Source: a virus (taxonomy: Duplodnaviria > Caudoviricetes). Taken from it: a stretch of DNA of 64,000 bases. The position numbers and the translations under genes are program-made. The stretch lies in the IMG/VR virus record IMGVR_UViG_2517572207_000003. The stretch is one strand, 5' to 3'. Positions 2 through 52,710 of the stretch are shown in pieces. How positions within the stretch are numbered: the first letter of the stretch is position 1; each line of letters opens with the position of its first letter. A model generated the notes under the pieces. The model saw nothing but the letters and a program-made list of their open reading frames with translations. It was not told the origin of the DNA and searched no databases.

Positions 2-1384
2 TTTACAGGACGAAACGGTCGGGGTAAAACGACGTTCTTAAACCTGCTGCAGGGGAAGTACGAATACAGCGGTACGATCTCCACACCAGTCGCCTTTGAT
101 TATTTTCCGTTTCCCGTCGAACATCCGGAGTATTTGACTTTAGATGTCGTCGAAGAGATCGTGCCAAGCTATGAGAACTGGAAGCTGATGCGTGAACTGA
201 ACCTGCTTAAGGTTTCAGAAGACGTGTTGTACCGACCATTCGAATCGCTGTCCCAAGGAGAACAGACGAAGGTATTGCTGGCTGTGCTATTCATCCAAGA
301 CAATCGATTTCTGCTCATCGACGAGCCGACCAATCATCTCGATTTGCACGCACGCAAGCTTGTCGCCGATTATCTGAATACGAAGCGTGGTTTTATTCTT
401 GTTTCACACGACCGTGCTTTTCTCGACCGCTGCGTGGATCATATTCTGTCGATCAACAAAACGAATATTGAAATCCAAAAAGGCAACTTCTCCAGCTGGT
501 GGACGAACAAAACTCGCCAGGATACATTCGAAATGGCACAAAACGAAAAGCTGTACAAAGACATACAGCGTTTATCAGCTTCCGCTAAACGTACTAGTAG
601 CTGGTCTTTCGAGACCGAAAAATCGAAAAACGGCACACGAAATTCCGGTTCCAAACTTGACAAGGGGTACGTCGGACATAAGGCAGCCAAAATGATGAAA
701 CGCTCAAAATCCATCGAACAGCGGCAACACACTGCTTTAGAGGAAAAATCGAAACTGCTCCGAAATATCGAACAGTCAGAAAGCCTTGCGATCTCTCAGC
801 TCGTGTATCCCAAATCGGAATTGGCGATACTGGATCATGTTACGATTTACTACGGGGAAAGAGCAGTATGCAAGAACGTTAGTCTGATGATTGAACCAGG
901 AGATCGGATTGCAATTTCAGGTCCAAATGGTTCAGGTAAGTCTAGCTTGCTTCACCTGCTCAACGCTGAGGAGCTATACTATACAGGTACGTTTCAACGG
1001 GATCCGCAGCTTCGCGTTTCCTATGTATCCCAGAATACTTCTGATTTGCGAGGTACGCTTTCCGATTATGCAGCAGAGCACAGAATTGACGAAAGCTTAT
1101 TTAAAGCCGTGTTGCGTAAGCTAGATTTCGCCCGCATCCAGTTTGAGAAGGATATATCGGCGTTTAGCGGCGGGCAGAAGAAGAAAGTTCTGATCGCGAG
1201 AAGCCTATGTGAGGAGGCTCATCTGCATATTTGGGACGAACCGCTCAACTTTGTTGACGTGATTTCCCGGATGCAAATTGAGGAGCTGCTGCTTGAATAC
1301 ACGCCCACCATTGTATTCGTAGAGCATGATCGGGAATTTCATGACCGGGTCGCCACGAAAACGATTGAACTCGGTGGGGATTAG
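2..1384 (+). CDS. lsa: Lsa-family ABC-F ribosomal protection protein (5' truncated by window edge)
   Basis: Frame open from base 2 (FTGRNGRGKTT Walker A); two ABC domains (LSQGEQTK/LLIDEPTNHLD; GPNGSGKS/FSGGQKKK/IWDEPLNF), no TM segments, Lsa-like linker DKGYVGHKAAKMMKRSK. Confidence 0.85.
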   Translation, partial: FTGRNGRGKTTFLNLLQGKYEYSGTISTPVAFDYFPFPVEHPEYLTLDVVEEIVPSYENWKLMRELNLLKVSEDVLYRPFESLSQGEQTKVLLAVLFIQDNRFLLIDEPTNHLDLHARKLVADYLNTKRGFILVSHDRAFLDRCVDHILSINKTNIEIQKGNFSSWWTNKTRQDTFEMAQNEKLYKDIQRLSASAKRTSSWSFETEKSKNGTRNSGSKLDKGYVGHKAAKMMKRSKSIEQRQHTALEEKSKLLRNIEQSESLAISQLVYPKSELAILDHVTIYYGERAVCKNVSLMIEPGDRIAISGPNGSGKSSLLHLLNAEELYYTGTFQRDPQLRVSYVSQNTSDLRGTLSDYAAEHRIDESLFKAVLRKLDFARIQFEKDISAFSGGQKKKVLIARSLCEEAHLHIWDEPLNFVDVISRMQIEELLLEYTPTIVFVEHDREFHDRVATKTIELGGD

Positions 1385-1465
1385 AATTTTACAAATTGAA
1401 TTGGATTAAGACATGATTTCAACGATAGAAAGCTTTGTTCAACAACTTTTATGAAAAGGAAAAAG

Positions 1466-1546
1466 ATTGAACTAAAGGCACACGATAGTTCAATCGAACA
1501 TCGGCAGTCTAGGATTTTATTTTTTCGTCCATGGCTGCCGATGGTT
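1466..1546. repeat. Palindromic cassette-boundary site plus conserved hairpin (opposite orientation to the other copies)
   Basis: ATTGAACTAAAGGCACACGATAGTTCAAT followed by ATCGGCAG..CTGCCGAT stem, similar to the reverse complement of 45855-45930. Confidence 0.65.
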
Positions 1547-2019: not shown

Positions 2020-2524
2020 TGCTGCTTTTGCTCACTTTCTTAATATTGCTCATCCTCCTCCCAACAGATAAGAAACAATAAAAAAACACAAGCAATTACG
2101 CTTGTGTTTTGATGCAGCCTATATCAGATCACTCTCAAAGAGACAAGACCCTGAAACTGTACCACGTAAGGCTTCAAGCTCATCCAGAGCTTTCTTTAAA
2201 TCACCGTCCATCGCTCATATCCTATTTTCATTAAGCACATTCCCCTCTGTACAATTCATGATTACTTTAGAATAATCCGCAAAAACGTTGCGCTTGCCAT
2301 GCAGGTCCAGTCGCGAAACAGCCCCGGCAATTTCCGTAACTCACCGTGTGGAAAACGACACCCCCATTGAAAAGGATGCCTCAACACTATGAATAAAGTA
2401 ACAAATTTCAGGATAAAAAATCATAGTTCCTAATGTCAGAAGAAGCCAAAGTATTAGACTGACCTTAGAAATTGAAACAGCGACAACTAAGACGAGGAAA
2501 TAGGGTCCTTGATTGTCGCTATTG

Positions 2525-2555
2525 CATTGAACTAACGTATCCCGTTAGTTCAATG
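2525..2555. repeat. Palindromic cassette-boundary site
   Basis: Perfect 13-bp inverted repeat CATTGAACTAACG-TATCC-CGTTAGTTCAATG, 13 nt past the hydrolase stop codon. Confidence 0.8.
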
Positions 2556-2568
2556 GATTAATATACAA

Positions 2569-3387
2569 CTAAAATCCAAACTCTGTTACTCTTTCAAGCC
2601 ACTCACGCATAAGTGACTCAAATAATAGAGTCTGTTCAATCTGAAGATTATGGCCTGCTCGATCTAGAACGGCAAAGGTTGCTCTAGGATAATTGTCTAA
2701 AATTCTAAAAGCATCTATGTAACCAACAACTGCATCTTGTCGCCCAAGAGTAAATACTGTTGGTTTATCGAAAACTAATTCATCTATATTGGTGGAAAAT
2801 CCATAGTTTCTTTGAATCTTGCTAAGAAAATCGTAGTCAGCGATCTTACAACCTGCCATGATCTCTTCTGAATACCTTTTCCAATTATATTCATTGAGAA
2901 CGACTTGATTTGCGCTAAAATCACTTACTTGCTCTTCACTTAAGGTGTCCATAAACTCGCGATCACTATGAACAACAAAATGCTCGGGAAGTATTCTTCT
3001 TTTGTGTTCAGGAATAATTAATGGGCAAATCAGTGCAGCCCCACCAATACGATCTTTATGTCTATTAATTATTCCTCTTGTAATATATCCACCGTATGAT
3101 TCACCTGCTATGAGATAATCTTGGTTTGGGACAAGAGTTTCAATAAAATTTATAACTGCTTCTAGCATATCATCTGAATTACATATTTGATCGTAATCCT
3201 TTGTTTGTCCCATTCCAGGCAGGTCAAGATAGATACGACGCCAATTGGAATTATCTTCAAATATCGGTTCCATACACCCACTCATTAACCGATGGTCTGG
3301 TGTAAAACCATGGATCATTATAATTGGTTTGCCTTTACCAATTTCCTCGTAATATATATTGGCATTCTTGACTTTACAATATGGCAT
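2569..3387 (-). CDS. Alpha/beta fold hydrolase
   Basis: IHGF oxyanion motif, DLPGMG, GESYGG nucleophile elbow, AGHNLQIE catalytic His. Confidence 0.9.
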   Translation of the reverse strand: MPYCKVKNANIYYEEIGKGKPIIMIHGFTPDHRLMSGCMEPIFEDNSNWRRIYLDLPGMGQTKDYDQICNSDDMLEAVINFIETLVPNQDYLIAGESYGGYITRGIINRHKDRIGGAALICPLIIPEHKRRILPEHFVVHSDREFMDTLSEEQVSDFSANQVVLNEYNWKRYSEEIMAGCKIADYDFLSKIQRNYGFSTNIDELVFDKPTVFTLGRQDAVVGYIDAFRILDNYPRATFAVLDRAGHNLQIEQTLLFESLMREWLERVTEFGF

Positions 3388-3517
3388 ACAGACTCCTCCA
3401 AAATTGAGTTATTATTATAATATTCTTACACTAAAGAAGAATCTACATGTTTTATCAAGCAAACCAGATCTCCTTTCCGTTTCGTTTTGATTATATACGC
3501 ATATATAATATATGTAA

Positions 3518-3531
3518 AGAACACTTGTTCC
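3518..3531. promoter_or_regulatory. LexA/DinR (SOS) box upstream of the hydrolase
   Basis: AGAACACTTGTTCC fits the Bacillota GAAC-N4-GTTC consensus. Confidence 0.55.
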
Positions 3532-3549
3532 CTATTCTTGTTTTCGGAG

Positions 3550-3577
3550 TTAAACTAACCTGCCCGTTACTTCAATG
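3550..3577. repeat. Palindromic cassette-boundary site
   Basis: TTAAACTAACCTGCCCGTTACTTCAATG. Confidence 0.75.
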
Positions 3578-3656
3578 AAAAAAAGCAGCCCCTCATGAAC
3601 TGCCCTACTGCTAGTCACTTCAACAATAGGATGAGTTCATACAAGGGCTACCCCAT

Positions 3657-3926
3657 TTACCAAGTAATCCAACCGCTCGTTCGTTTGTAACTGTGCAGGA
3701 TCTCGTATTCCTCACTACGCATCAGTCGTTTCATTTTTGTTCTATACAGCCGATAATCATCTTTTCTTGCTACTTTACATTCTTTGTTGTAATGAACACT
3801 CTTGATTCCTTTACGGAAATCCTTAAGCTTCTCTTTTCTTGGATCTTTGGGCTTATTATTGATCTCCAGACTACGCTGTTTCTCATCTTCCCAGGATTGA
3901 ATCTCTTCCCGTGTAAACATCTTCAT
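3657..3926 (-). CDS. Hypothetical basic protein (cassette cargo; 5' end possibly damaged)
   Basis: 89-aa ORF between boundary sites; the nearest good RBS/ATG (4009) is out of frame. Confidence 0.55.
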   Translation of the reverse strand: MKMFTREEIQSWEDEKQRSLEINNKPKDPRKEKLKDFRKGIKSVHYNKECKVARKDDYRLYRTKMKRLMRSEEYEILHSYKRTSGWITW

Positions 3927-4050
3927 CCCCGTTGTGCCGGGTTAGATTTTGGCATTTGAAGCCATGACCTTAGACACAACTAATAGAAGAAGATCTTCGG
4001 ATTGAACATTAAATCACCTCTGAATTTATTCGCCCTTATTTTAACATATT

Positions 4051-4069
4051 TATAACTATTCTTCCCGTT
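4051..4069. repeat. Degenerate cassette-boundary site
   Basis: TATAACTATTCTTCCCGTT aligns with the left arm and spacer of 5208-5235; right arm lost. Confidence 0.4.
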
Positions 4070-4193
4070 TTACGCCTTCAATCAGTGTTTAGACAATCAT
4101 TTTACATATTTGAAATTTGCAACTTTCCCCTCTAAACCTTCCTCATCCTGGTCCGTTCCTGTTTCACCATGAGCTCCCTTCTAAAGGGAGTCT

Positions 4194-5111
4194 TTATGCA
4201 TAGGTATACTCCGGTCCCAATCGTTCGATAATTCGATCCAACTGTCTGGTTAGATAAGGCGAAACGTCACCAATGCCAGACACTGCTTCTAACAAGGGAA
4301 AGGATTGCCCACCCCACGGGCCTTGTGGATCAAAGACTTGTCTACCGATTCGCAAGCCTTCTGTTTCCCTGAAGATGTTCAATCGTTCCAATCCTTCAAT
4401 AAGCAGCCCGACCGGCAGCGTTTTGTTCCTACGTCGGGACCATTCTGCCAAGAAGGACATGCCACGTAATATATCATATTCAAAAAACCTCGGAAAACAA
4501 GGCTTCAGCCATTCCATATCGATGACACTTCTATTTTGTTTAGAACATACAAGACGATGCTCAATTAAATAACGTGCGCCTTCATCTAAGAAAACGACTT
4601 CCTGTTCAGTAAATTCACGGTCTGTATGCCATAAGATAGCTTCAAGCGGAGGAAGTGTCGAAACAATAGAGCTCTTTTTAGAATGAATATAAGCTTCAGG
4701 ATCGCAGTTCAGTCCGCCATCAGGTAACTGATGCTTTAAGAGCCATTCGCGAATCCAAGGCAGTTCCTTGTCCAAATCACAGCCATACGCCATTAGAATC
4801 ATATAGTATACGGCAAGTTCACAATGGCAGCAATCCATCTTCATCTTATCACTTTCACTTGTTGGATGGTCATCGGGGAATATGATGAAGGTGGGCCAAA
4901 CCTGAGTTTCGAGTAAATATTTTGCTCCAGTAATAGCAGACTCGGGAATTAGTTTCACCTCACCCATTTCATAAAGAGCAGCCATATGCCACCAAGCTCC
5001 ATCCCATTTTCGACGGCTGCACTCGCCGTGAGTCATCCCCAAATGCGGAGTAGATTCAAGGAACTGTATAGATTCTTCGATTGCTAAACGAATATTTTGA
5101 TTTGCTTCCAT
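4194..5111 (-). CDS. Hypothetical protein, prenyltransferase/squalene-cyclase-like alpha/alpha barrel
   Basis: WLLKHQLPDGGLNC QW-like repeat, FPRFFEYDILRG; RBS AAGGAG. Confidence 0.6.
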   Translation of the reverse strand: MEANQNIRLAIEESIQFLESTPHLGMTHGECSRRKWDGAWWHMAALYEMGEVKLIPESAITGAKYLLETQVWPTFIIFPDDHPTSESDKMKMDCCHCELAVYYMILMAYGCDLDKELPWIREWLLKHQLPDGGLNCDPEAYIHSKKSSIVSTLPPLEAILWHTDREFTEQEVVFLDEGARYLIEHRLVCSKQNRSVIDMEWLKPCFPRFFEYDILRGMSFLAEWSRRRNKTLPVGLLIEGLERLNIFRETEGLRIGRQVFDPQGPWGGQSFPLLEAVSGIGDVSPYLTRQLDRIIERLGPEYTYA

Positions 5112-5207
5112 CTGGGTATCTCCTTTTTGATTACCTCTACTTCACACTTCAGTTAAGCAACGCCTCACCTCGTATACCCTTCCACTCTTAAAAAATTCGA
5201 TATGTTA

Positions 5208-5235
5208 TTAAACTATCCTGCCCGTTAGCTTAATG
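5208..5235. repeat. Palindromic cassette-boundary site
   Basis: TTAAACTATCCTGCCCGTTAGCTTAATG; positionally equivalent to 46479-46506. Confidence 0.75.
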
Positions 5236-5319
5236 AGGCATCGTCAGAATATTACTTTATTTTTCAGTTTAGAACTTTATTTTCTTCTGACACCTATAAT
5301 AAAGACCGCAAAGGCTTAA

Positions 5320-5550
5320 GCCCTTTGCTTCTGGCATTCTAAGTCCAATTTCTCCTTCTTGGTTTCGCCCCCGACCATAGTCGATCATCACAAAATCCAA
5401 TGTTCGGTTGACAGACTTTTTGCTAAATTTTCTTTGACCTTGCGTCTTTTGTCAGCGAATGTTGTGGCTGATATACCATGAATACCTTTTTTATACTCTG
5501 CTCATATACTGTTGAGCTTTTAGATACAAAAGCTTTGCAGCAAGCCTTTC
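5320..5550 (-). pseudogene. Remnant of the late-activator-like gene (homolog of 46593-47225)
   Basis: Encodes ISATTFADKRR and IDYGRGRNQEGEIGLRMPE, as in the intact copy; disrupted. Confidence 0.75.
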
Positions 5551-6355
5551 ATGCACATCTCTAATGTTAGAGATTGCAAAACGGATATTGTTTGTAATGA
5601 GGAAATAGAACTTGTAATGAGCTGTTACTCTTTAGAGCTATCCACATCCAGAATGCCACCCAAGGGTGAGCCATCATCCAATCAGCTTATGGTCATGAGC
5701 GGCCACGCTCCACGGAATCGCTTATACTCTTCTGTTCTTTTAGGCTGTAATAGCTGAGCTCATGTTCAGGTTGCACACACTTTGACCTTTTATTGTCGTG
5801 GTAACCGTAGACCTTCAACAGACTTCTTGAGCCTGGCTATCTCGTTATCCTTTTGTTGCATAAGGGTTTCAACGGCGATTAAATCATCGTTCTAGCCCTT
5901 AGCCACCTGTTGAAATCTCTATACCCCCTTTCTATATCTAGCTGCTGTGGTGGGTCTGGATCAATCCTTCCACTATTGAATGGTTGTTGCTCCACATCTC
6001 ATTTATATGTTTTTCCACACTCATCCGCCGTCTCGGCTCCATCCACTCTTTGCAGCATCAAATGGCATTTTACAGTCATATACAATTAAAAATCCCTTTC
6101 CGCATTACTGTAAGTACACTGTCCGAATGCGTACATGCCTCTTCTTTCATCCGTAGGAGTATTTTTAAAATCGAAATCAACATTTTCAGTGAGGAAGAAA
6201 CCTCTACATCTGGCATCATTACAACGATGCTTCGACAGACATTGTATAAGGCTGTTTTCTCTTTCTTTACTCCCTATGAGCTAAAATATGATATATCCTT
6301 ACTGCCCTCAACAATGAATATGTTCTGCATAAACTATCAAAAAGGAGATGAGAAC

Positions 6356-41105: not shown

Positions 41106-42536
41106 TCAACCAAATGAAAATACATTTTTGAATTTAATATTTGCAAAAGATAATACAAATGCGTCGGCCCTATCCGGTGAGGGTAGGCCGCGCTTTTTCA
41201 TATCCTCTTTTCGTTCTAAAAATATCTTTCCGTTGCTACCCATCCGCCATTTTCGGGAAGTGAGCTGCGTTATAAGTTTCTCGTCATCTGGCAATTGCAG
41301 TTCACCCGGCTTGCCAAGCACATAGTTGCTCATATTAGCCTCAAGCATTTCTTTGACATGTCCCCACTGTTCAGCCCCTAGATTCCCATAATGACCGTCT
41401 TCCGCTGCTGATCCATTGTTAACTGGAATGATGGTGTAGCCTAGACTTTTCTCCTCATTAATCTCATTCAATCTATCTGTTACAGCTCCACCTATTCCAC
41501 TATCATCAATTCTTATTTCTACTTCGTCCATTTCTGTACGCTCTGCCTTTACATCATCAACCAGGCGTAATACCCAGCCTGTGGTTGTCATAGTGTCCTG
41601 CTTGTGGTGGAAATGAGTCTTTACCACCTTGCCTCCCATACGTGCGTACATGGTTGTCTCATCGTCTCCAAAACGTGCAACGTCAACACCTACAAATAGC
41701 TTTGTTCCAGAAGGTTCAATTTTAACTTCATCTTTGGCAAATTCCGCAGCTTCCAGAGAGATGAATGTATCAGATTCACCACGGGGAAACTCGCCTTCTA
41801 CACGAACGCGCCATACATCGCTTCCCTCTCCATATTTCCGTTTAAGCATAGCGATGTTTTCTTTACTCGTTCTCGGACTGTCCAAACAGGATACCTTACG
41901 TGTTTTATAATCAGATCTATCCTTATTGTGCGAATCATAAAAAACACCCGACGTTTTTGTCGGGTTTCCACACATCAGTATTTTATTGAACTCACCCGAC
42001 AACGTACCTAAAATGGCTTCCATGATTGGATCAGCAACACCCGATGCCTCATCCACAACAAATAGCATGTAGTCCTCATGAAAGCCTTGCATATTTTCAG
42101 GCTTGGTTGCTGTCCGAGCTGTAGCGAACCATCGTTCCTCATAATTTTTCATGTATATTTTGGTCTTAGTCCACTTAAGGATTCGTTTCAGCACCGGACT
42201 TTTAGATTGCCATTTATTTATCTCAGCCCATAACACGTCATGTAGTTGCTGCCTTGTAGGAGCTGTACAAATTACCTTTGGATATGGGAAACACGACAAG
42301 AACCATAGAGCTGTTGCCGCTTCTAATCCTGTTTTTCCTACGCCTTGACCTGAACGTACTGAAACACGAGGATTATTAGCTAAATCCATTAGAGTGCTTG
42401 CCTGCCAATCATCAGGATAGAACTTAAGCATCTCTTGACAGAACAATGTGGGATTCTTGCGATACTCAGGAATCCTTTTCTTGAATGCTTGAAGTCTCCG
42501 TTTCGTCTCCGGTGAGTCCTTCGTCTTCATCGCCAA
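41106..42536 (-). CDS. terL: Terminase large subunit
   Basis: SGQGVGKT Walker A, VVDEASG Walker B, GVDVARFGDD nuclease, SPDRADA. Confidence 0.95.
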   Translation of the reverse strand: MAMKTKDSPETKRRLQAFKKRIPEYRKNPTLFCQEMLKFYPDDWQASTLMDLANNPRVSVRSGQGVGKTGLEAATALWFLSCFPYPKVICTAPTRQQLHDVLWAEINKWQSKSPVLKRILKWTKTKIYMKNYEERWFATARTATKPENMQGFHEDYMLFVVDEASGVADPIMEAILGTLSGEFNKILMCGNPTKTSGVFYDSHNKDRSDYKTRKVSCLDSPRTSKENIAMLKRKYGEGSDVWRVRVEGEFPRGESDTFISLEAAEFAKDEVKIEPSGTKLFVGVDVARFGDDETTMYARMGGKVVKTHFHHKQDTMTTTGWVLRLVDDVKAERTEMDEVEIRIDDSGIGGAVTDRLNEINEEKSLGYTIIPVNNGSAAEDGHYGNLGAEQWGHVKEMLEANMSNYVLGKPGELQLPDDEKLITQLTSRKWRMGSNGKIFLERKEDMKKRGLPSPDRADAFVLSFANIKFKNVFSFG

Positions 42537-43749
42537 CCACCGCCTCTACCCAATCGTCAATTAAATCGTCTTCTGAATTTCCTTCTCCAGTGACCTTTGC
42601 CCTTTCAAGCTCAAGTTTCTCACGTTGCATCTTAAGTTTCTCGTCTTCAACCATCCGTTTATGTTTGTCTGGAAGCAGATCCATGTATTTAGTTAGCACG
42701 TCCAATGCCTTGGTTTTGTCGTGTAGCTTTACGCTCACTCCATCCTTACCCTGCTTGACTTCTGAAACCAGAGTTCCATCAATTTCATCGCTGTTTTTAA
42801 AAGAGACATAATTGTATCTGTACTTCTTCGTTTCTCCAGTGTCAGGATCAAACACAGGATCTCCTTCTAAGCCAAGAACATCTTCTTCCTTTTGACCGAA
42901 TTCTACGTAATCCGTAATGTCTGCGAAAGCAATCTTCATGTACTCCATTAGAACTCGCTGAGCATTTAAACCCACCTCGTCGATCATTGTTTCCTTGTGC
43001 TGCCGAATAATGTTTTGGATTTCAACTTTCTTCAACAGAGCGAAACCAATCTGATAGGCAGTTTTCTTACTGTATCCCGCCGCAATCGCTGACCTGGTAG
43101 CGTTGAAGTCTCGAAGGTATTCATAAGTGAATATCCTTTGCTTAGGCGTTAATCCATCCTCATCGGGAATTTCCGGTTCAGGTTCTTCAACAACCGTTGG
43201 AGCACTCTGTACTTTTTTGGAACGTTCCATATTACCGGAGCGTTCCGGTACTTTTTTCGGAGCGCTCCGTATTTTTGGAGTTTCCCCCAGCTCTTTTGAT
43301 AGTGCATCAACAGTAAGCAGAGTAGCATATACTTCCCTCGGCTTATCACCTTGATATGTACCAATGAATTTGCGCCGCTCCATTTCATCAATCAGTCGGG
43401 CCGCTCTGCTATAACCTATCCTCATTCTTCTCTGTAATAAAGAAACCGAGGCTTGTTTGGCCTCGGCTACAATTTGGACAGCTTTTAGAAAAAGATCGTC
43501 TGGATATGATGTTGTATCTTCATCTTTCTTTGCAGGTTCATTTTTTTTATCAGTTTCATCTTCATCGGAACGTTCCGTATGTTTCGCTTCTCCAATCAAA
43601 CTCTCCCACTTATCTTTAGCCTTCCATCCTCTTACCGTACCTTCAGATACACTAAGCTGAGATGCTATATCTGTGAGACGTATGTTGCCGGAACTGGCTT
43701 TGTATAAATCAAATGCTTCGTCCCGTTTAGGATCTCTCTTTCGTCCCAT
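42466..43749 (-). CDS. terS: Terminase small subunit with N-terminal HTH and an inserted FtsK-gamma domain
   Basis: TVRGWKAKDKW HTH; ASVSLLQRRMRIGYSRAARLIDEME gamma; LTPKQRIF..DFNATRSAIAAGYSKKTA TerS core. Confidence 0.9.
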   Translation of the reverse strand: MGRKRDPKRDEAFDLYKASSGNIRLTDIASQLSVSEGTVRGWKAKDKWESLIGEAKHTERSDEDETDKKNEPAKKDEDTTSYPDDLFLKAVQIVAEAKQASVSLLQRRMRIGYSRAARLIDEMERRKFIGTYQGDKPREVYATLLTVDALSKELGETPKIRSAPKKVPERSGNMERSKKVQSAPTVVEEPEPEIPDEDGLTPKQRIFTYEYLRDFNATRSAIAAGYSKKTAYQIGFALLKKVEIQNIIRQHKETMIDEVGLNAQRVLMEYMKIAFADITDYVEFGQKEEDVLGLEGDPVFDPDTGETKKYRYNYVSFKNSDEIDGTLVSEVKQGKDGVSVKLHDKTKALDVLTKYMDLLPDKHKRMVEDEKLKMQREKLELERAKVTGEGNSEDDLIDDWVEAVVGDEDEGLTGDETETSSIQEKDS

Positions 43750-44004: not shown

Positions 44005-44508
44005 ATGAAAAAGTTGGTTTCTATTTTGCTCACATTTGCCCTTTTGTTATCCGTGTCCGTAACAGCATTTGCAGAAGAAGCAACACCTACTAACCAGCAA
44101 GATGCAAAATACTCCATCAGTGTTGGTGATTCCGACATCGAATTGGCTAAAGGAGAAACTGTTGAAATACCTCTTACATTAATCCCTAAAGAAGGAACGG
44201 TTCATCCCAATGTTGATTTCCCTGGCACTGGGGGAATCCTTTCCTTAACTGCTGGGGCCAATTATGTCTTTTACAGAATAACTCCGTCGGTTCCAATAGA
44301 TAATTTCACTGGAATAATGAGTATCACAGATTTGACTTCTGGATTAAGTAATGGGAATGCAATTGTATCTGGATTAGCAGGTCAAGTTGCTTATTCTGGT
44401 TATAGGAATCATACGTACCGCGCTTCTTTGGACGGTACAGGCACTTTACTTGGAATCCCTTATATTAATACTAACCCAAATGGGATTACTTGGACACATA
44501 ATTGGTAA
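44005..44508 (+). CDS. Secreted hypothetical protein (moron)
   Basis: MKKLV signal peptide ending AFA. Confidence 0.7.
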   Translation: MKKLVSILLTFALLLSVSVTAFAEEATPTNQQDAKYSISVGDSDIELAKGETVEIPLTLIPKEGTVHPNVDFPGTGGILSLTAGANYVFYRITPSVPIDNFTGIMSITDLTSGLSNGNAIVSGLAGQVAYSGYRNHTYRASLDGTGTLLGIPYINTNPNGITWTHNW

Positions 44509-44564
44509 TATTAGTTGAATTATATAAAGAAGCTTACAGTCATTGACTATAAGCTTCTTTTCTA

Positions 44565-45017
44565 TTATAGAGTTGGTTTAAACAAATAGTGTAAGAAAAG
44601 ACTTGTAACAGTTAAACTATATTTTTTGTCTATTGAGATCGACTTTGGGTCTTTCATAAATTGCTGTACATCATTCGTGTCTAACTTGGCATACAGTGCT
44701 ATGGTTTCATATGAAATACCCCAATGCTGATTCAAAATATCAATAACGCCCTTTACTCGCTCACTTTCGTCTATCATTTGGATTCCATTAGCGAGCATAA
44801 AAAGCAAACTATCGAAATTCAGTTTAGAATGCGAATTACCTAATTCAGAAAAATCATTCTTGCCATTTAAATATCCCAAAATTACGTCTTCTTCAATTCC
44901 AGAAATTTTACTTAGGGTATCTGTAGTTATCTTGTAGACTTCCAAAACTCGTTTTAACAGCGCTCTAGGCCCATCTTCACCTTCGGACCCGTTGCTTGTG
45001 TCCCCATATAATTTCAT
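44565..45017 (-). CDS. Double-HTH domain protein
   Basis: ITTDTLSKISGIEEDVI and ISYETIALYAKL helix-turn-helix-like repeats. Confidence 0.6.
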   Translation of the reverse strand: MKLYGDTSNGSEGEDGPRALLKRVLEVYKITTDTLSKISGIEEDVILGYLNGKNDFSELGNSHSKLNFDSLLFMLANGIQMIDESERVKGVIDILNQHWGISYETIALYAKLDTNDVQQFMKDPKSISIDKKYSLTVTSLFLHYLFKPTL

Positions 45018-45464
45018 TAAAGAAAACCCCTTTCATATAAATTCTTCTCCGACACGATGTACGCTAACTGATATATCATCCTTTTATTCCAGTTCCATAC
45101 CTCCACTTCCAAATGAATAATTATATATATCATTATAACCAAAAGATGGGGATTTTTGTTGCATTGATTCATTTCATCTAATCATACAAATTTAGAAAAT
45201 TGTCCTGATTTAACTTAGCAAAAAGAAGGAAATAGATTCCCATCTGCCTCGTTATTATAGATTGATGAGGTTGAGGAAAAGCTTCCCGAACAAATAAAAG
45301 AGCAACGATTTCACGCTGCTCTACTGTAGTGATCAGTAATTTATAAAATGCGGTTACCGCTAATCCGCCATGCCTGGAATAGGCCTTCAATGGACATCCT
45401 TCTTGCTCCGGGTTTATATTACCCTCTGAGTCCTGTCTCCGATTTAGTTTTAGTTTTGGAAAAA

Positions 45465-45719
45465 TTACAGAAGTTGATCAGCTAGCGCTTTAAGGCCACT
45501 TGGTACAGCAATTTGTTTGCCGTCATGTTCATTGCCGTTTACATAAGCTGTGTCTTTGTCTGCATAGTAAACTACACCTTTACCGCCGATAATCGGGAAG
45601 ACGCTTTCGTCGTAATCCAGATTTGTACCCACATACTTGCCATGCTTAGCTGCTTCACTTTCCGATGGATGGAGATGAAGAATTTTTGTGTTGTCCAAGT
45701 AAGCGTAACTATGTGCCAT
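45465..45719 (-). CDS. Hypothetical protein
   Basis: 84-aa ORF with RBS AGGAGG. Confidence 0.65.
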   Translation of the reverse strand: MAHSYAYLDNTKILHLHPSESEAAKHGKYVGTNLDYDESVFPIIGGKGVVYYADKDTAYVNGNEHDGKQIAVPSGLKALADQLL

Positions 45720-45901
45720 GTTTATTGCCTCCTAAAATAGTTTTAATTTGTTCCTGAATAAAGTGTAAATCCTTTCTACTCCGTACCTACTACGGATTTG
45801 CTAGTTCCTACTATCAGCAGAAAATAAAGTGGTAGACTGAGCCTAGAAATTGAAAACAGCGACAACCAAGGACGAAAAAAAGTCCTAGACTGTCGCTGTT
45901 C

Positions 45902-45930
45902 CATTGAACTAACGTTCCCCGTTAGCTTAA
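45902..45930. repeat. Palindromic cassette-boundary site overlapping the NUDIX stop codon
   Basis: CATTGAACTAACGTTCCCCGTTAGCTTAA; adjacent hairpin at 45855-45900. Confidence 0.8.
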
Positions 45931-46391
45931 ACCATATTCTCCAGATACTTGTTGAATAAGGCTAATGAGTATTGCTTTTGAGAGATCAAATTTTCTGTAA
46001 TCTGTTTAATTACTTCTTTATCGCGTAGCTCAAGTGAATCTGGAATCAACAGATCCGTAGGTGCTATCCATTTCGAATCAATGATCTCCGTTGTATCTAA
46101 CTGAAGAGAACCACCGATGATTTCACCAATAAAATGAAATAAAATAACCTGGTGATTTGTACTACTAATGAAGTTATAAATACCTGTAGTGGCTGTAAGT
46201 TTAACGTCGTAGCCGGTTTCTTCTTTTGCTTCTCTACGTGCCGCCTCTAGAATATCTTCATCATATTCGATTCTCCCTGACGGGAAGTTCCATGTATTCT
46301 TAACAGATGCTTTGTTTTCTTTGATCATAAGCAGCTTATCTTCATGTATTATCGAAACACTCACAACCAATACAATCCCGTTTTGAGTCAC
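45927..46391 (-). CDS. NUDIX hydrolase
   Basis: Nudix box GRIEYDEDILEAARREAKEETG; SOS-like box AGAACATATGTTCC at 46435-46448. Confidence 0.93.
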   Translation of the reverse strand: MTQNGIVLVVSVSIIHEDKLLMIKENKASVKNTWNFPSGRIEYDEDILEAARREAKEETGYDVKLTATTGIYNFISSTNHQVILFHFIGEIIGGSLQLDTTEIIDSKWIAPTDLLIPDSLELRDKEVIKQITENLISQKQYSLALFNKYLENMV

Positions 46392-46478
46392 GCTAAAAAA
46401 CCTCCATAGTTAGAAAATTAACGTCACTATTATTAGAACATATGTTCCGATTTTTGTAAATGACTGGATCACCGCTCA

Positions 46479-46506
46479 TTATACTAACCTGCCCGTTAGC
46501 TTTATG
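46479..46506. repeat. Palindromic cassette-boundary site
   Basis: TTATACTAACCTGCCCGTTAGCTTTATG. Confidence 0.75.
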
Positions 46507-46592
46507 AAGCATCGTCAAGACTATTACTTTATTTTCAGTCTAGAACTTTAGACACCTAAAATTAAGACCGCAAAGGCTTAAGCCCTTACGGT

Positions 46593-47225
46593 CTAATTTA
46601 CTTCTGGCATCCTCAGTCCAATTTCACCTTCCTTGTTTCGTCCCCGACCATAGTCGATGGTGACAAAATCCAATGTACGGTTTGTCTTTAGGCTGTTTGC
46701 TATATTAACAATAACCCTACGTCGTTTATCTGCAAATGTAGTCGCTGAGATAGGAGGAATGTCCTTGCGATAACCTTTTTCCAAATATTGTTGAGCTTTG
46801 AGATATTTCATACCATCCATAAATAACAGCTTTGCTATCAATCCCTCGTGCTTATCACGCATATTGTTTATTGCAAACTTAATGTTATTCGTAAGAAATT
46901 GATAGAATTTGTAATTCACATGGCGCTGGTCTTTGAGCAGAACGGCGTTAGCTGTCACATCTGCTGTCAGTTCTTGTCCAGAAACTCGCTTGGCAACCGA
47001 GCCTTCCGCAGAAAGTAGATCATATGCAGCCATTCCGTTTTCAATCTGCTGAAGAGCAAACTCATAGTTCTTGATCACGTCTACCATATCGGTATACTTA
47101 CCAAGTAGCCATTTTGTTTTACGGATATCTTCTTGTTCTAACTCATCAAAAAAGTTAATTTGAATAATTTTTATATTATCTTCCGTTTCTTCTTTTAACA
47201 ACAATATAGAGTTGGTTGAAGTCAT
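46593..47225 (-). CDS. Putative late transcriptional activator (ArpU/RinA-like)
   Basis: Last early gene before packaging; sigma-4-like C-terminus ISATTFADKRRRVIVNIA. Confidence 0.55.
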   Translation of the reverse strand: MTSTNSILLLKEETEDNIKIIQINFFDELEQEDIRKTKWLLGKYTDMVDVIKNYEFALQQIENGMAAYDLLSAEGSVAKRVSGQELTADVTANAVLLKDQRHVNYKFYQFLTNNIKFAINNMRDKHEGLIAKLLFMDGMKYLKAQQYLEKGYRKDIPPISATTFADKRRRVIVNIANSLKTNRTLDFVTIDYGRGRNKEGEIGLRMPEVN

Positions 47226-47340
47226 AAATACACCCCTTATTAATATTAATTGTTAATATATGTCGGAAAATTAGACATCATTTAAACTGTGTAATATTGT
47301 AGGGAGGAATAAAAAAATATAAACACAGGGAGCGATCAGT

Positions 47341-52398: not shown

Positions 52399-52710
52399 AT
52401 CCGCCCTCCTATATGTTTTCGGTTCCTATACAAGGTTGCTCGTTCGGATACAGTGTTGCGTAATCGAATCATTCAGCGTAGGAAAAGTTTCCTTAACTGA
52501 TCTTGGCTTGTGCCAACCTCACCGCATGATCCCGGTGAACGCTCTGAGCTTAATGACCTGTTTATACTCGCTCAGACGAGTTTTTAATTCTTTGATCCAA
52601 ATTGTAAGTAGGATGAAGTTCCACTCGAATTCCCAAAACCCGTCTTGCAGAATACCCATTGCTTGTATGTTTTTCTCATAATCAGCGCCTCCATTTTATA
52701 TGCAATATAC

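Follow-up and report, generated by a model that had tools for sequence, protein, structure and literature searches.

Accessory-gene slot and its cargo

The window, i.e. the whole analysed stretch of 64,000 nucleotides (Caudoviricetes, IMG/VR record IMGVR_UViG_2517572207_000003), contains a prophage remnant and an intact prophage. Coordinates are given for the plus strand; the element itself reads on the minus strand. In the remnant, every interval between short palindromic sites holds one minus-strand ORF, which confirms the single co-oriented accessory gene per interval reported in a preliminary description of the sequence. The three cassette genes encode an alpha/beta hydrolase of 272 aa recognized by Pfam (2569-3387), an 89-aa protein of no family (3657-3926) and a 305-aa protein with no Pfam family (4194-5111), the latter two being ORFs submitted to a Pfam search. 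For the 305-aa protein, a weak Atlas lead pointed to terpene-cyclase-like clusters. The single cassette of the intact prophage is a NUDIX hydrolase gene (45927-46391, minus strand), whose stop codon (45927-45929) lies inside the adjoining site E.

Upstream, the slot is anchored by the last early gene, which encodes a 210-aa phage protein of unknown function (phrog_21810; 46593-47225, minus strand) and has a terminator at 46565-46594. The downstream anchor is an 84-aa phage gene (45465-45719, minus strand), 3' of which an HTH_60 gene (44565-45017) and the small terminase gene (42466-43749) follow. In the remnant, the conserved upstream flank (5236-5540, minus strand) comprises a remnant of the 210-aa gene and a terminator (5308-5328) and is homologous to 46507-46840. 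The claimed homology of the outer flanks to those of the NUDIX gene was borne out by self-comparison and blastn, at about 76-90% identity: 2424-2553 is about 80% identical to 45802-45930 and 5207-5409 is 79-90% identical to 46478-46682, while in blastn 5207-5526 and 2424-2548 matched the intact-prophage flanks at 76% and 81%, respectively. The conserved flanks reach through sites A/E and D/F, and the cargo between them is unrelated. Site A, the last of the array, is part of the conserved downstream flank, and site D, the first, part of the upstream flank. The slot for accessory genes of this Paenibacillus prophage is located between its last early gene and the late operon leading into the terminase; the array found there has three cassettes in the remnant and one in the intact prophage. 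A weak type-1-like site (1465-1501, plus strand, 9.3 bits) lies 81 nt behind a plus-strand ABC-F-like gene (2-1384). The array extends leftwards beyond the window edge.

Sequence and geometry of the sites

Six sites of 29-31 bp were read directly from the window sequence at the places given in the preliminary description, whose palindromes at 2525, 3550, 4051 (degenerate) and 5208 correspond to sites A to D. They are composed of two 11-12 bp arms with the inner ends CTAAC...GWTAG and an asymmetric spacer of 6-7 bp. All six sites are direct repeats on the minus strand, as are the sites in the arrays of relatives. Two spacer classes were distinguished, type 2 with GGGCAG and type 1 with GGGAAAC-like spacers. 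Type 1 is represented by site A (2525-2555; 12-7-12, minus-strand spacer GGGATAC, 34.2 bits) and by site E of the intact prophage (45902-45931; GGGGAAC, 30.6 bits). Type 2 is represented by site B (3549-3577; 29.4 bits), site D (5207-5235; 39.0 bits) and site F of the intact prophage (46477-46506; 32.0 bits), all with the spacer GGGCAG. Site C (4050-4083) is degenerate and type-2-like, with the spacer GGGAAGA and an insertion in the 5' arm. In the intact prophage there are just two sites, which bracket its single variable gene. A loose motif pattern gave five matches in the window, corresponding to four sites, one of them counted on both strands; in dinucleotide shuffles (n = 100) the mean was 0.09 matches and none of the 100 reached five.

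The arms assort independently among sites. Pairing of an arm with its own partner gave 7.41 Watson-Crick pairs of 12, compared to 7.22 with shuffled partners, i.e. no covariation, and G.T and A.C mismatches between the arms had the same frequency. The folds of sites B and D are weak (-6.3 and -6.8 kcal/mol). Apart from a chance-level snoRNA match, no Rfam family was found in the region 2300-5600. A function as RNA or folded hairpin was rejected due to the missing arm covariation and the weak folds of B and D.

Promoter and terminator calls for the cassettes were made by consensus scans only, which gave no promoter-like or terminator-like call on any site; such calls adjoin the sites. A terminator-like hairpin with a U-rich tail (2462-2524, minus strand; -19.5 kcal/mol, z -4.45) directly follows site A and is homologous to 45839-45901 behind site E (-27.1 kcal/mol, z -5.86). 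The 89-aa cassette ends with another terminator-like hairpin with a T run (3582-3606, minus strand), immediately upstream of site B. A sigma-70-type promoter-like site with 11/12 matches (3490-3518, minus strand) is located between site B and the hydrolase gene; the hydrolase cassette is thus predicted to carry its own promoter. That the sites are themselves promoters or terminators was rejected, since separate ones flank them; the concern that they might prove to be terminators only was thereby settled.

Due to the absence of arm covariation and the promoters and terminators beside them, the sites are read as double-stranded core sites of a tyrosine recombinase. They have the generic features of candidate cores of this kind, namely inverted arms of ~11 bp, an asymmetric spacer within the usual range of 6-8 bp and homology breaks at the spacer. 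Alternatively, the sites could terminate small non-autonomous transposable elements (MITE, PATE or REPIN-like), which would be mobilized via their hairpins by a transposase of the HUH or Y1 type. The sequences are hairpin-capable, doublets of them lie between genes, and one Y1 transposase gene, with an internal stop, is present on the plasmid (C2:24844-25155). This single gene is far from all arrays, however, no covariation preserves the hairpins, the breaks fall inside the sites and not beside them, and the different contexts have in common the gene between the sites, not a repeat unit. We give such an origin hardly any credence.

Distribution of the sites

Genome counts were made with a model built from the sites. 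At a threshold of at least 9 bits with core, 50 sites were found in the genome, compared to 4, 4 and 8 in three shuffles; at a threshold of at least 13 bits, 32 sites remained and the shuffles gave 0. Altogether, 277 sites were obtained in the 7.2 Mb examined, the spacer being 6 nt long in 131 and 7 nt in 116. The genome sites are intergenic in 41/50 cases, compared to 42/300 random positions, and in 33/41 the upstream ORF is co-oriented with the site. At the other loci, 203 of 227 sites are intergenic and 160 of 197 co-oriented. The scan proposed in the preliminary description thus revealed sites of one family across the genome and the class, which lie at gene boundaries and have the same orientation as the genes.

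At C1:2292926-2297596, seven sites occur with one gene between successive sites, and in relative G054 single loci comprise dozens of units. The sites are found in many Bacilli, on plasmids and in chromosomal arrays of many genera; a pattern search of 401 Bacilli genomes gave no match in 303. In relatives, a junction is often a doublet of about 100 nt, in which sites of two types flank a GC hairpin. The cargo of the arrays includes hydrolases, NUDIX enzymes, transporters, restriction and abortive-infection genes and an ABC-F protein. IS110-family insertions were observed within arrays. At the ends of the G054 arrays ordinary genes are located, and no integrase, attI or common promoter was found at array ends.

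Operators of a DNA-binding regulator, e.g. stoperator-like sites of a prophage repressor, might produce a similar picture if the coincidence with gene boundaries were due to chance or to selection for insulated units. Mycobacteriophage stoperators are intergenic, oriented and sequence-conserved, as are the sites described here, and independent evolution of the arms fits protein-binding half-sites. No regulator gene shared by the arrays was found, no neighbour family being common to more than six genomes. The pair of sites around the one variable gene of the intact prophage, the occurrence of the same sites on plasmids and in chromosomal arrays across many genera, and inter-locus homology which breaks inside the sites also speak against operators, which we regard as very unlikely.

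Cassette sharing and breakpoints

The 89-aa cassette (window 3555-4069) is also present on the plasmid of the same strain (C2:342408-341896), with 94.2% identity over 515 bp. Homology begins at the AAC-GGG junction of site C and stops at site B; upstream, the copies differ in their 5' arms, and downstream they diverge right after the core. As the two copies are 6% diverged, the exchange is not recent. The 305-aa cassette is 86% identical over 1107 bp to a sequence of relative G007. Three loci (L034, L035 and L038) have a cassette in common, with breaks within type-1 spacers. Positions 8744-10593 of L036 correspond to 2166-317 of L046, a locus of a different species, at 98% over 1852 bp, and both ends are at sites in both loci. 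At a syntenic locus, G020 and G016 have different cassettes between the same flanks. As anticipated, the same cassettes were thus encountered at different loci, and the homology ended within the site.

Of 528 HSP ends, 101 are at most 20 nt from a site centre, such windows making up ~1% of the DNA compared, and of 132 distinct shared blocks, 83 do not terminate at any detected site; these counts are qualified by the fact that BLAST ends are drawn to conserved sites under any mechanism. Relative to the spacer start, blocks begin at -13 to -3 and end at +1 to +13.

Slot alleles have the 5' arm and spacer in common at the type-2 site and the 3' arm at the type-1 site, and differ on the cargo side of both. 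The claim that cargo switches at the palindromes holds for the remnant and the intact prophage, whose flanks are conserved through the outer sites, but not for three empty slot alleles (L023, L025 and L029), which have their breakpoints ~75 and 130 nt outside the palindromes. Alleles with an empty site had been predicted; these three carry no site at all. Likewise, a relative of the 210-aa gene is present at six other loci, none of which showed sites.

Breakpoints at conserved repeats would also be expected if general or phage-encoded homologous recombination (RecA, single-strand annealing proteins) shuffled the modules at short conserved sequences and no dedicated enzyme were involved. The conserved doublets of ~100 nt in relatives are long enough for such exchange, and the candidate recombinase REC described below was not found in this genome or in G054. 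The window sites, however, are single, 29-31 bp long and only about 70-85% alike, and short, imperfectly matching sequences are a poor substrate for RecA. Furthermore, homologous recombination gives no reason for sequence conservation across Bacilli families in a site which is neither promoter nor terminator, and it leaves unexplained the geometry of two arms and an asymmetric 6-7 bp spacer, the existence of two spacer classes, the strictly direct orientation and a site-bounded recombinase gene. Shuffling at promoter-stem-loop motifs (PeSL) is documented for T4-type phages in the available parts of two reports (PMC2839356, PMC4122927); for the arrays analysed here, we consider an explanation by homologous recombination unlikely.

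Candidate recombinase

A co-occurring tyrosine recombinase, which the preliminary description had proposed to look for, was found in other genomes in the form of REC, a family of 280-aa Xer-type tyrosine recombinases. REC matches the XerD, XerC and XerA models with about 187-196 bits (XerD and XerC about 195), below every equivalog cut-off, and its best solved relative is E. coli XerD (structure 1a0p, E 1.5e-32). The protein is short, with two domains and without an arm-binding domain or IntI insert, and shares no more than about 27-32% identity with the housekeeping Xer genes in these genomes. In 8/8 REC copies with an intact 5' end, a type-1-like site precedes the ATG by ~72 nt, and homology among REC loci extends from this site to a terminator plus the 5' arm and spacer of a type-2 site. 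In other Bacilli genomes, REC is itself a site-bounded unit. Copies with 78-100% identity occur in 10/36 same-genus genomes, and a partial copy with 90% identity is present in another family. The gene is sporadic, horizontally spread (86-100% identity between species), often decayed and located inside cassette arrays.

REC and the sites are linked. In hand counts of the 401 Bacilli genomes, at least three pattern matches were found in 12 of 34 genomes with REC and in 20 of 367 without, and outside the family of the window in 7/27 and 6/340, respectively, p-values for these comparisons being overstated because related genomes are not independent. Within the family of the window, the association is not significant (5/7 with REC, 14/27 without). 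A reversed control pattern gave at least three matches in roughly 6% of genomes (counted by eye), which equals the rate among REC-less genomes. On REC-bearing plasmids of other genera, sites are no denser beside REC: nine REC regions contained 15 matches, compared to 13 in seven arbitrary regions of these plasmids, five of which had none.

The preliminary description had found no recombinase identifiable in the window. This extends to the whole genome, in which tblastn did not find REC; the best match, with 27% identity, was to housekeeping Xer genes. A search of G054, the bearer of the largest arrays, with the same query did not find REC either. In this genome, the only trace of REC is a match of 41 nt, located on the plasmid. 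As any cassette gene has a site before it, REC could be mere cargo.

The sites might also be used by XerC/XerD (CodV/RipX) of the host, as proposed for the pdif modules of Acinetobacter, REC being a passenger or variant helper. Arms of 11-12 bp and a spacer of 6-7 bp are the geometry of Xer sites, arrays without a linked recombinase exist, two Xer-like genes are present in this genome, and REC itself belongs to the Xer family. The dif-like sites of the genome near the terminus, located with a short dif arm motif, have the inner ends ATAA/TTAT and an AT-rich spacer, however, compared to TAAC/GWTA and a GC-rich spacer in the sites analysed here. The sites of pdif modules resemble chromosomal dif and alternate in orientation, whereas direct repeats are found here. 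Finally, 303 of 401 Bacilli genomes had no pattern match, although Xer is generally regarded as near-universal. Use of the sites by the host enzymes is, in our view, distinctly improbable.

Proposed mechanism

The observations support the site-specific cassette capture suggested in the preliminary description; the site-specific catalysis is what we infer. It is reasonably probable that the palindromes are double-stranded core-type recombination sites bounding mobile single-gene cassettes and that the window holds such an array, an orphan for which REC is the likeliest enzyme. The two 11-12 bp arms would bind the recombinase, and the asymmetric 6-7 bp spacer would be the crossover region, with exchange presumably at the spacer edge. 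In this model, a cassette would start with the 3' arm of a site, in many cases followed by a promoter of its own; the gene and a terminator would come next, and the 5' arm and spacer of the following site would complete it. Two sites of the same class in direct repeat would recombine to excise the cassette as a circle with one site, and by reversal of this reaction it would be inserted at any such site, whether in a phage, a plasmid or a chromosome. Neither cassette circles nor excision junctions were seen in the sequence analysis. REC is the most likely enzyme, and since it was not found in this genome, the window array is probably an orphan, assembled when REC was supplied in trans.

Whether this extends to soil Bacilli in general (Paenibacillus, Bacillus, Peribacillus, Sporosarcina and others) we regard as evenly balanced. 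These bacteria would then have their own integron-like gene capture independent of IntI/attC. Single-gene cassettes with promoters of their own would be moved by a small recombinase of the Xer type, which would be a mobile unit as well, and the double-stranded 30-bp sites between which they move would belong to two spacer classes and lie in chromosomes, megaplasmids and temperate phages. A published description of such a cassette system was not found in the literature. Integrons are the textbook route by which bacteria stockpile and shuffle single genes, and Firmicutes are reported, in the available parts of the literature, to be almost without them; the proposed system would fill this long-noted gap. 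It would also explain the exchange of small accessory genes among chromosome, plasmids and phages in large-genome soil Bacilli, and would provide a concrete mechanism behind the variable accessory-gene slots of temperate phages, prophage slots being docking points for a cell-wide cassette pool. A short double-stranded site combined with a small recombinase could become a genetic tool in Gram-positive bacteria.

Comparison with known systems

The sites differ from REP/REPIN or IS200/IS605 elements, as compensatory change is missing and the sole Y1 gene, with its internal stop, is remote from the arrays. With XerD, XerC and XerA, REC shares model matches and the short two-domain build; it differs from housekeeping Xer proteins in its sporadic, horizontal and often decayed occurrence within cassette arrays.

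The PeSL of T4-type phages are also short conserved motifs which border single accessory genes in hyperplastic genome regions and are tied to gene insertion, deletion and replacement (PMC2839356, PMC4122927, as far as the available parts of these papers go). PeSL motifs are functional promoter-terminator units thought to act via homologous recombination; the sites described here are neither promoters nor terminators, have the geometry of a recombinase core and are not confined to phages.

The pdif modules of Acinetobacter plasmids are discrete accessory-gene units bounded by sites of ~28 bp, in which arms of 11 bp enclose a spacer of 6 bp; they mostly have no adjacent recombinase gene and are shuffled among replicons, as described in the available parts of three papers (PMC6449649, PMC7399989, PMC13141974). 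The pdif-module literature, to the extent available, deals almost entirely with Acinetobacter, and none on Bacilli was found in it. In contrast to pdif, the window sites are unlike the dif-like sites of their own genome, and they form direct repeats of two spacer classes which also occur in chromosomes and prophages.

As in integrons and CALIN, arrays of mostly single, co-oriented accessory genes are parted by recombination sites, the same cassette was found in different arrays with junctions inside the site, and defence and resistance-like genes are among the cargo. At their inner ends (AAC ... GTT or GAT), the arms are similar to the core consensus of attC R'' and R'. The 59-base element was formerly described as two simple sites around a variable hairpin, and the doublet junctions of relatives are built in the same way. 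The claim that the sites are much shorter than attC holds for the window, whose sequence-conserved sites of 29-31 bp contrast with the 57-141 nt of attC, which is variable in sequence, conserved in structure and recombined as a folded single strand; it does not hold for the doublets of about 100 nt in relatives, which leave some room for attC likeness. No IntI-type integrase was found: none of five genomes (this genome and four relatives) exceeded the 265-bit cut-off of TIGR02249, the best match in this genome being a 96-bit fragment (C1:4134250-4134498) beside a different repeat array. Instead of a common Pc, the hydrolase cassette has its own promoter-like site and the 89-aa cassette its own predicted terminator. 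The candidate enzyme REC, of the Xer type, lacks the insert of IntI and forms one of the array units itself.

Two prophage loci with different genes between shared sites

The stretch 2424-5540 lies inside the prophage remnant and every gene in it is on the minus strand. In that orientation, what is left of a 210-aa phage gene comes first, together with its terminator (5308-5328). Site D (5207-5235) and a 305-aa gene (5111-4194) follow, and then the degenerate site C (4083-4050), behind which lies an 89-aa gene (3926-3657) that is followed by a terminator-like hairpin (3606-3582). Next come site B (3577-3549) and an alpha/beta hydrolase gene (3387-2569), with a promoter-like site (3518-3490) between them. 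Site A (2555-2525) is the last site, and behind it is a strong hairpin whose tail is U-rich. In the intact prophage, also on the minus strand, the 210-aa gene (47225-46593) and its own terminator precede site F (46506-46477) and a NUDIX gene (46391-45927) whose stop codon is inside site E (45931-45902). Site E is followed by the same hairpin as site A and then by genes for an 84-aa protein, an HTH_60 protein and the small terminase, in this order.

The preliminary description had reported palindromic sites between the genes of 2424-5240, one co-oriented gene per interval, and the same phage locus with different cargo. All three observations hold: sites A-D were read in place and a loose site pattern matched five times in the window (0.09 expected), the three intervals hold the hydrolase, 89-aa and 305-aa genes, and the flanks of the remnant and intact slots are 76-90% identical with the outer sites included, whereas the cargo is unrelated to NUDIX. 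A search of phage records in distant mode, using 44500-47300 as query, gave 0 matches.

Public sequencing runs were searched as contigs, and holes and contig ends were excluded as evidence. RNA-library contigs cover the stretch and some span sites B and C. In one public contig, copies of sites A and D enclose 2219 other letters; this contig probably represents another locus of the organism and does not count as a sign of excision. In RNA-library contigs of two studies, the depth over the 89-aa gene (3657-3926, minus strand) was far above that of its neighbours, which is only a hint of strong expression since contig depth cannot rank genes.

Two further features of the intact prophage were recorded. 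In the small terminase subunit (42466-43749, minus strand), an FtsK gamma domain (PF09397, 88 bits) separates the N-terminal HTH from Terminase_2, and a Pistol ribozyme is present in the early region (52512-52581, minus strand; Rfam RF02679, 70.8 bits at a gathering score of 34.5).

Structure and nature of the sites

Each site consists of two arms of 11-12 bp, which are imperfect inverted repeats with the inner ends CTAAC and GTTAG or GATAG, around an asymmetric spacer whose sense strand begins with GGG in every case. The type 2 spacer has 6 nt (GGGCAG; sites B, D, F and the degenerate C). The type 1 spacer has 7 nt, for example GGGATAC, GGGGAAC or GGGAAAC; sites A and E are of this type, and a hairpin lies behind the site. 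Among 277 collected sites, the spacers GGGCAG, GGGAAAC and GGGACAC occurred 101, 44 and 21 times, respectively. The type 2 spacer, read as GGGCAGG, resembles the FtsK-orienting octamer (KOPS), a possible parallel to the FtsK gamma domain of the small terminase.

The palindromes were also considered as RNA elements, terminators, promoters or folded attC-like substrates. Site A folds well, whereas sites B and D fold poorly. Paired with their own partners, the arms form 7.41 Watson-Crick pairs of 12, versus 7.22 with shuffled partners; the commonest variant has an A.A mismatch, and G.T and A.C mismatches are equally frequent between the arms. The reading as an RNA hairpin or RNase site was dropped for this lack of both arm covariation and G.U bias, and an Rfam search found no family at the sites. 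Regarding transcription signals, the promoter-like site and the terminator-like hairpins adjoin the sites and none lies inside. When the site itself was read by eye as a -35/-10 promoter, the spacing was wrong, and the promoter scan called none. The missing covariation, the weak folds of B and D and the separate terminators and promoter together speak against RNA elements, terminators and folded substrates of the attC kind. They fit double-stranded sites with two protein-binding arms. The independent assortment of the arms is also the outcome expected from exchange within the spacer.

Distribution of the sites and their arrays

A profile built from 12 sites, combined with a core filter, was used as the site model. 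It detected 50 sites in the window's own genome (43 on the chromosome, seven on the 367-kb second contig) versus 4, 4 and 8 in three shuffled genomes; at ≥ 13 bits the numbers were 32 and 0. The sites fall in about seven clusters, one of which (chromosome, C1:2292926-2297596) comprises seven sites in the same orientation, most neighbours being separated by a single small ORF. Intergenic positions were found for 41 of the 50 sites, compared to 42 of 300 random positions, and the ORF upstream of the site was co-oriented in 33 of 41 cases. The family expected from the preliminary description is thus present genome-wide. In other genomes, 203/227 sites were intergenic and 160/197 co-oriented. A strict pattern matched 23 of the 36 genomes of the genus, and a broader pattern matched 98 of the 401 genomes of the class, several families being well represented.

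Arrays of dozens of cassettes over many contigs were found in G054, a genome from another family of the same order. The junction between ORFs there is a doublet of ~100 nt, in which a short linker and then a GC-rich hairpin separate a type 1 site from the type 2 site behind it, and the same doublet occurs within the genus (locus L036). The initial claim that the sites are much shorter than attC therefore applies to the single sites of the window, but not to these doublets. The cargo comprises phosphotransferases, Mrr-type and McrBC-like restriction systems, HNH nucleases, a DNA polymerase beta clamp, transporters and many genes of no assigned function.

IS110-family transposase genes were observed in or beside arrays of several genera (L035:4309-5595, C1:2294256-2294642, L110, L111, L116, L118 and L122), and one full-length copy sits immediately after a site. 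This recalls IS1111-type elements, which target attC or REP sites.

To the left of the window's array, the island continues (window 2-1384, plus strand; C1:3176000-3194240) with genes for an ABC-F-type two-ATPase protein, an MFS transporter, a SLATT-domain protein, a holin and a 262-aa tyrosine recombinase. Weak sites are present there in both orientations.

Breakpoints of shared segments

The 89-aa cassette (window 3555-4069) has a copy on the plasmid contig with 94.2% identity over 515 bp. On the upstream side, the 5' arms are unrelated and the homology sets in where AAC meets GGG in the site; on the downstream side, it spans the 5' arm and the spacer and ends just past the conserved core. 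In G054, one cassette is present in three copies with breaks in type 1 spacers. A block of 1852 bp shared by two species at 98% identity has sites at both ends in both partners. At a syntenic chromosomal locus of two other species, 1.0 kb versus 3.2 kb of different cassettes lie between shared flanks; one joint is at a site, the opposite one at a half-site. Alleles of the phage slot, the variable place between the 210-aa and 84-aa genes, divide within the sites as well: at the type 2 site, the 5' arm and spacer stay with the phage and the 3' arm varies with the cargo, while at the type 1 site the 3' arm stays with the phage and the 5' arm and spacer vary.

In the pooled comparisons, 101 of 528 block ends were no more than 20 nt from a site centre, and windows of this size around the centres make up ~1% of the compared DNA, with the caveat that alignment ends are drawn to conserved sites whatever the mechanism. 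Blocks start at -13 to -3 and end at +1 to +13 relative to the site, a pattern predicted for a true joint within the spacer, with BLAST extending into the conserved arm. Neither end was at a detected site in 83 of 132 distinct shared blocks, which counts against site-bound exchange.

Further loci with the phage slot were collected by a search with the 210-aa protein (13 loci). A module with sites was present in four (L021 and L022, two copies in one genome, L024 and L030). No site was found in the slot of three others (L023, L025 and L029), in which the terminator of the 210-aa gene is followed by the 84-aa gene with ~23 unrelated bases between them; the remaining six also had no site and were arranged differently. 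Besides the sites, the module includes its own flanks of ~75 and ~130 nt and a subterminal inverted repeat of ~24 bp near its outer ends (window 5236-5284 and 2424-2480; 46507-46555 and 45802-45860). The left-hand stretch also occurs upstream of at least six other type 2 sites in the same genome. According to the three site-less alleles, the whole module is present or absent as a block with edges outside the palindromes.

Of the checks named in the preliminary description, the one for the same cassette at different loci with breaks in the site came out as predicted, whereas the empty alleles of the phage slot break outside the palindromes. The sites are probably recombination joints of mobile cassettes.

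Candidate recombinase

ORFs of ≥ 120 aa within 8 kb of sites were clustered, and no family of them was found in more than six genomes; an earlier, smaller clustering of linked genes was also negative. In G054, the array ends adjoin ordinary genes. Tyrosine recombinases near three clusters of the own genome (C1:3188727-3189515, C1:608865-609146 and, on the plasmid contig, C2:346514-347611) were rejected, as they are related neither to one another nor to REC, the candidate described below; the 262-aa enzyme of the left island is likewise unrelated to it.

REC is an Xer-type tyrosine recombinase of 280 aa (e.g. L076:12618-13460) found in four array loci of three genomes. Its scores of ~195 bits against the models for XerD and XerC are under their cut-offs, and its nearest solved structure is XerD. 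Copies with 78-100% identity occur in 10 of the 36 genomes of the genus; truncations or stop codons affect many of these copies. A partial copy with 90% identity is present in another family. A type-1-like site is located ~72 nt before the start codon in all eight copies with an intact 5' end. Homology between REC loci begins at this site and ends after a terminator, a type 2 5' arm and the spacer; REC, flanked by a type-1-like site and a type 2 half, hence occupies the place of the GC-rich hairpin in an ordinary junction. Homologues with ~50% identity were found on large plasmids of Bacillus mycoides, Peribacillus, Sporosarcina, Cytobacillus and others. The Sporosarcina homologue is inside an array of at least eight local-variant sites, and on a plasmid of Bacillus bombysepticus a stretch of 6 kb contains nine sites.

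At least three pattern matches were present in 12/34 Bacilli genomes with REC versus 20/367 without (401 genomes, counted by hand), and outside the window's family in 7/27 versus 6/340, related genomes not being independent in these counts. A reversed control pattern reached three matches in ~6% of genomes (counted by eye). Inside the window's family the association was not significant. On plasmids of other genera, the site density near REC was no higher than in arbitrary regions of the same plasmids. That every cassette gene is preceded by a site also counts against REC as the enzyme. REC was not found in G054 with this query and is absent from the window's genome, where the only trace is on the plasmid contig (C2:309638-309677), a 41-nt stretch that matches the central part of the REC gene at 93%. 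A co-occurring tyrosine recombinase, as anticipated earlier, was accordingly seen at arrays of other genomes, but in neither of these two. Movement of the cassettes by a site-specific tyrosine recombinase is likely; for REC as the enzyme acting on the sites, the case is evenly balanced.

Other arrays in the same genome

A second, unrelated array outside the window (C1:4114583-4133541) contains ~17 copies of a GC-rich repeat of ~70 nt, each directly 3' of a minus-strand ORF. Beside it, a fragment at C1:4134250-4134681 is the genome's best match to the integron integrase model (96 bits, below the cut-off). The whole resembles a decayed integron of the classical type, or a CALIN, in a Paenibacillus genome. 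In addition, six dif-like palindromes lie in 45 kb (C1:2999009-3044666), somewhat past the GC-skew maximum (~2.84 Mb), and two of them flank an Xer-like recombinase gene (C1:3008278-3009114).

Comparison with known systems

A description of such a system was not found in the papers searched on Paenibacillus integrons, integron-like, CALIN and Xer-like systems and dif modules. The IntegronFinder papers describe Firmicutes as nearly without integrons. The locus in the window is probably an orphan array of a cassette system. No integron integrase was found in this genome. The cassette system would act in the manner of integrons or dif modules but belongs to neither family.
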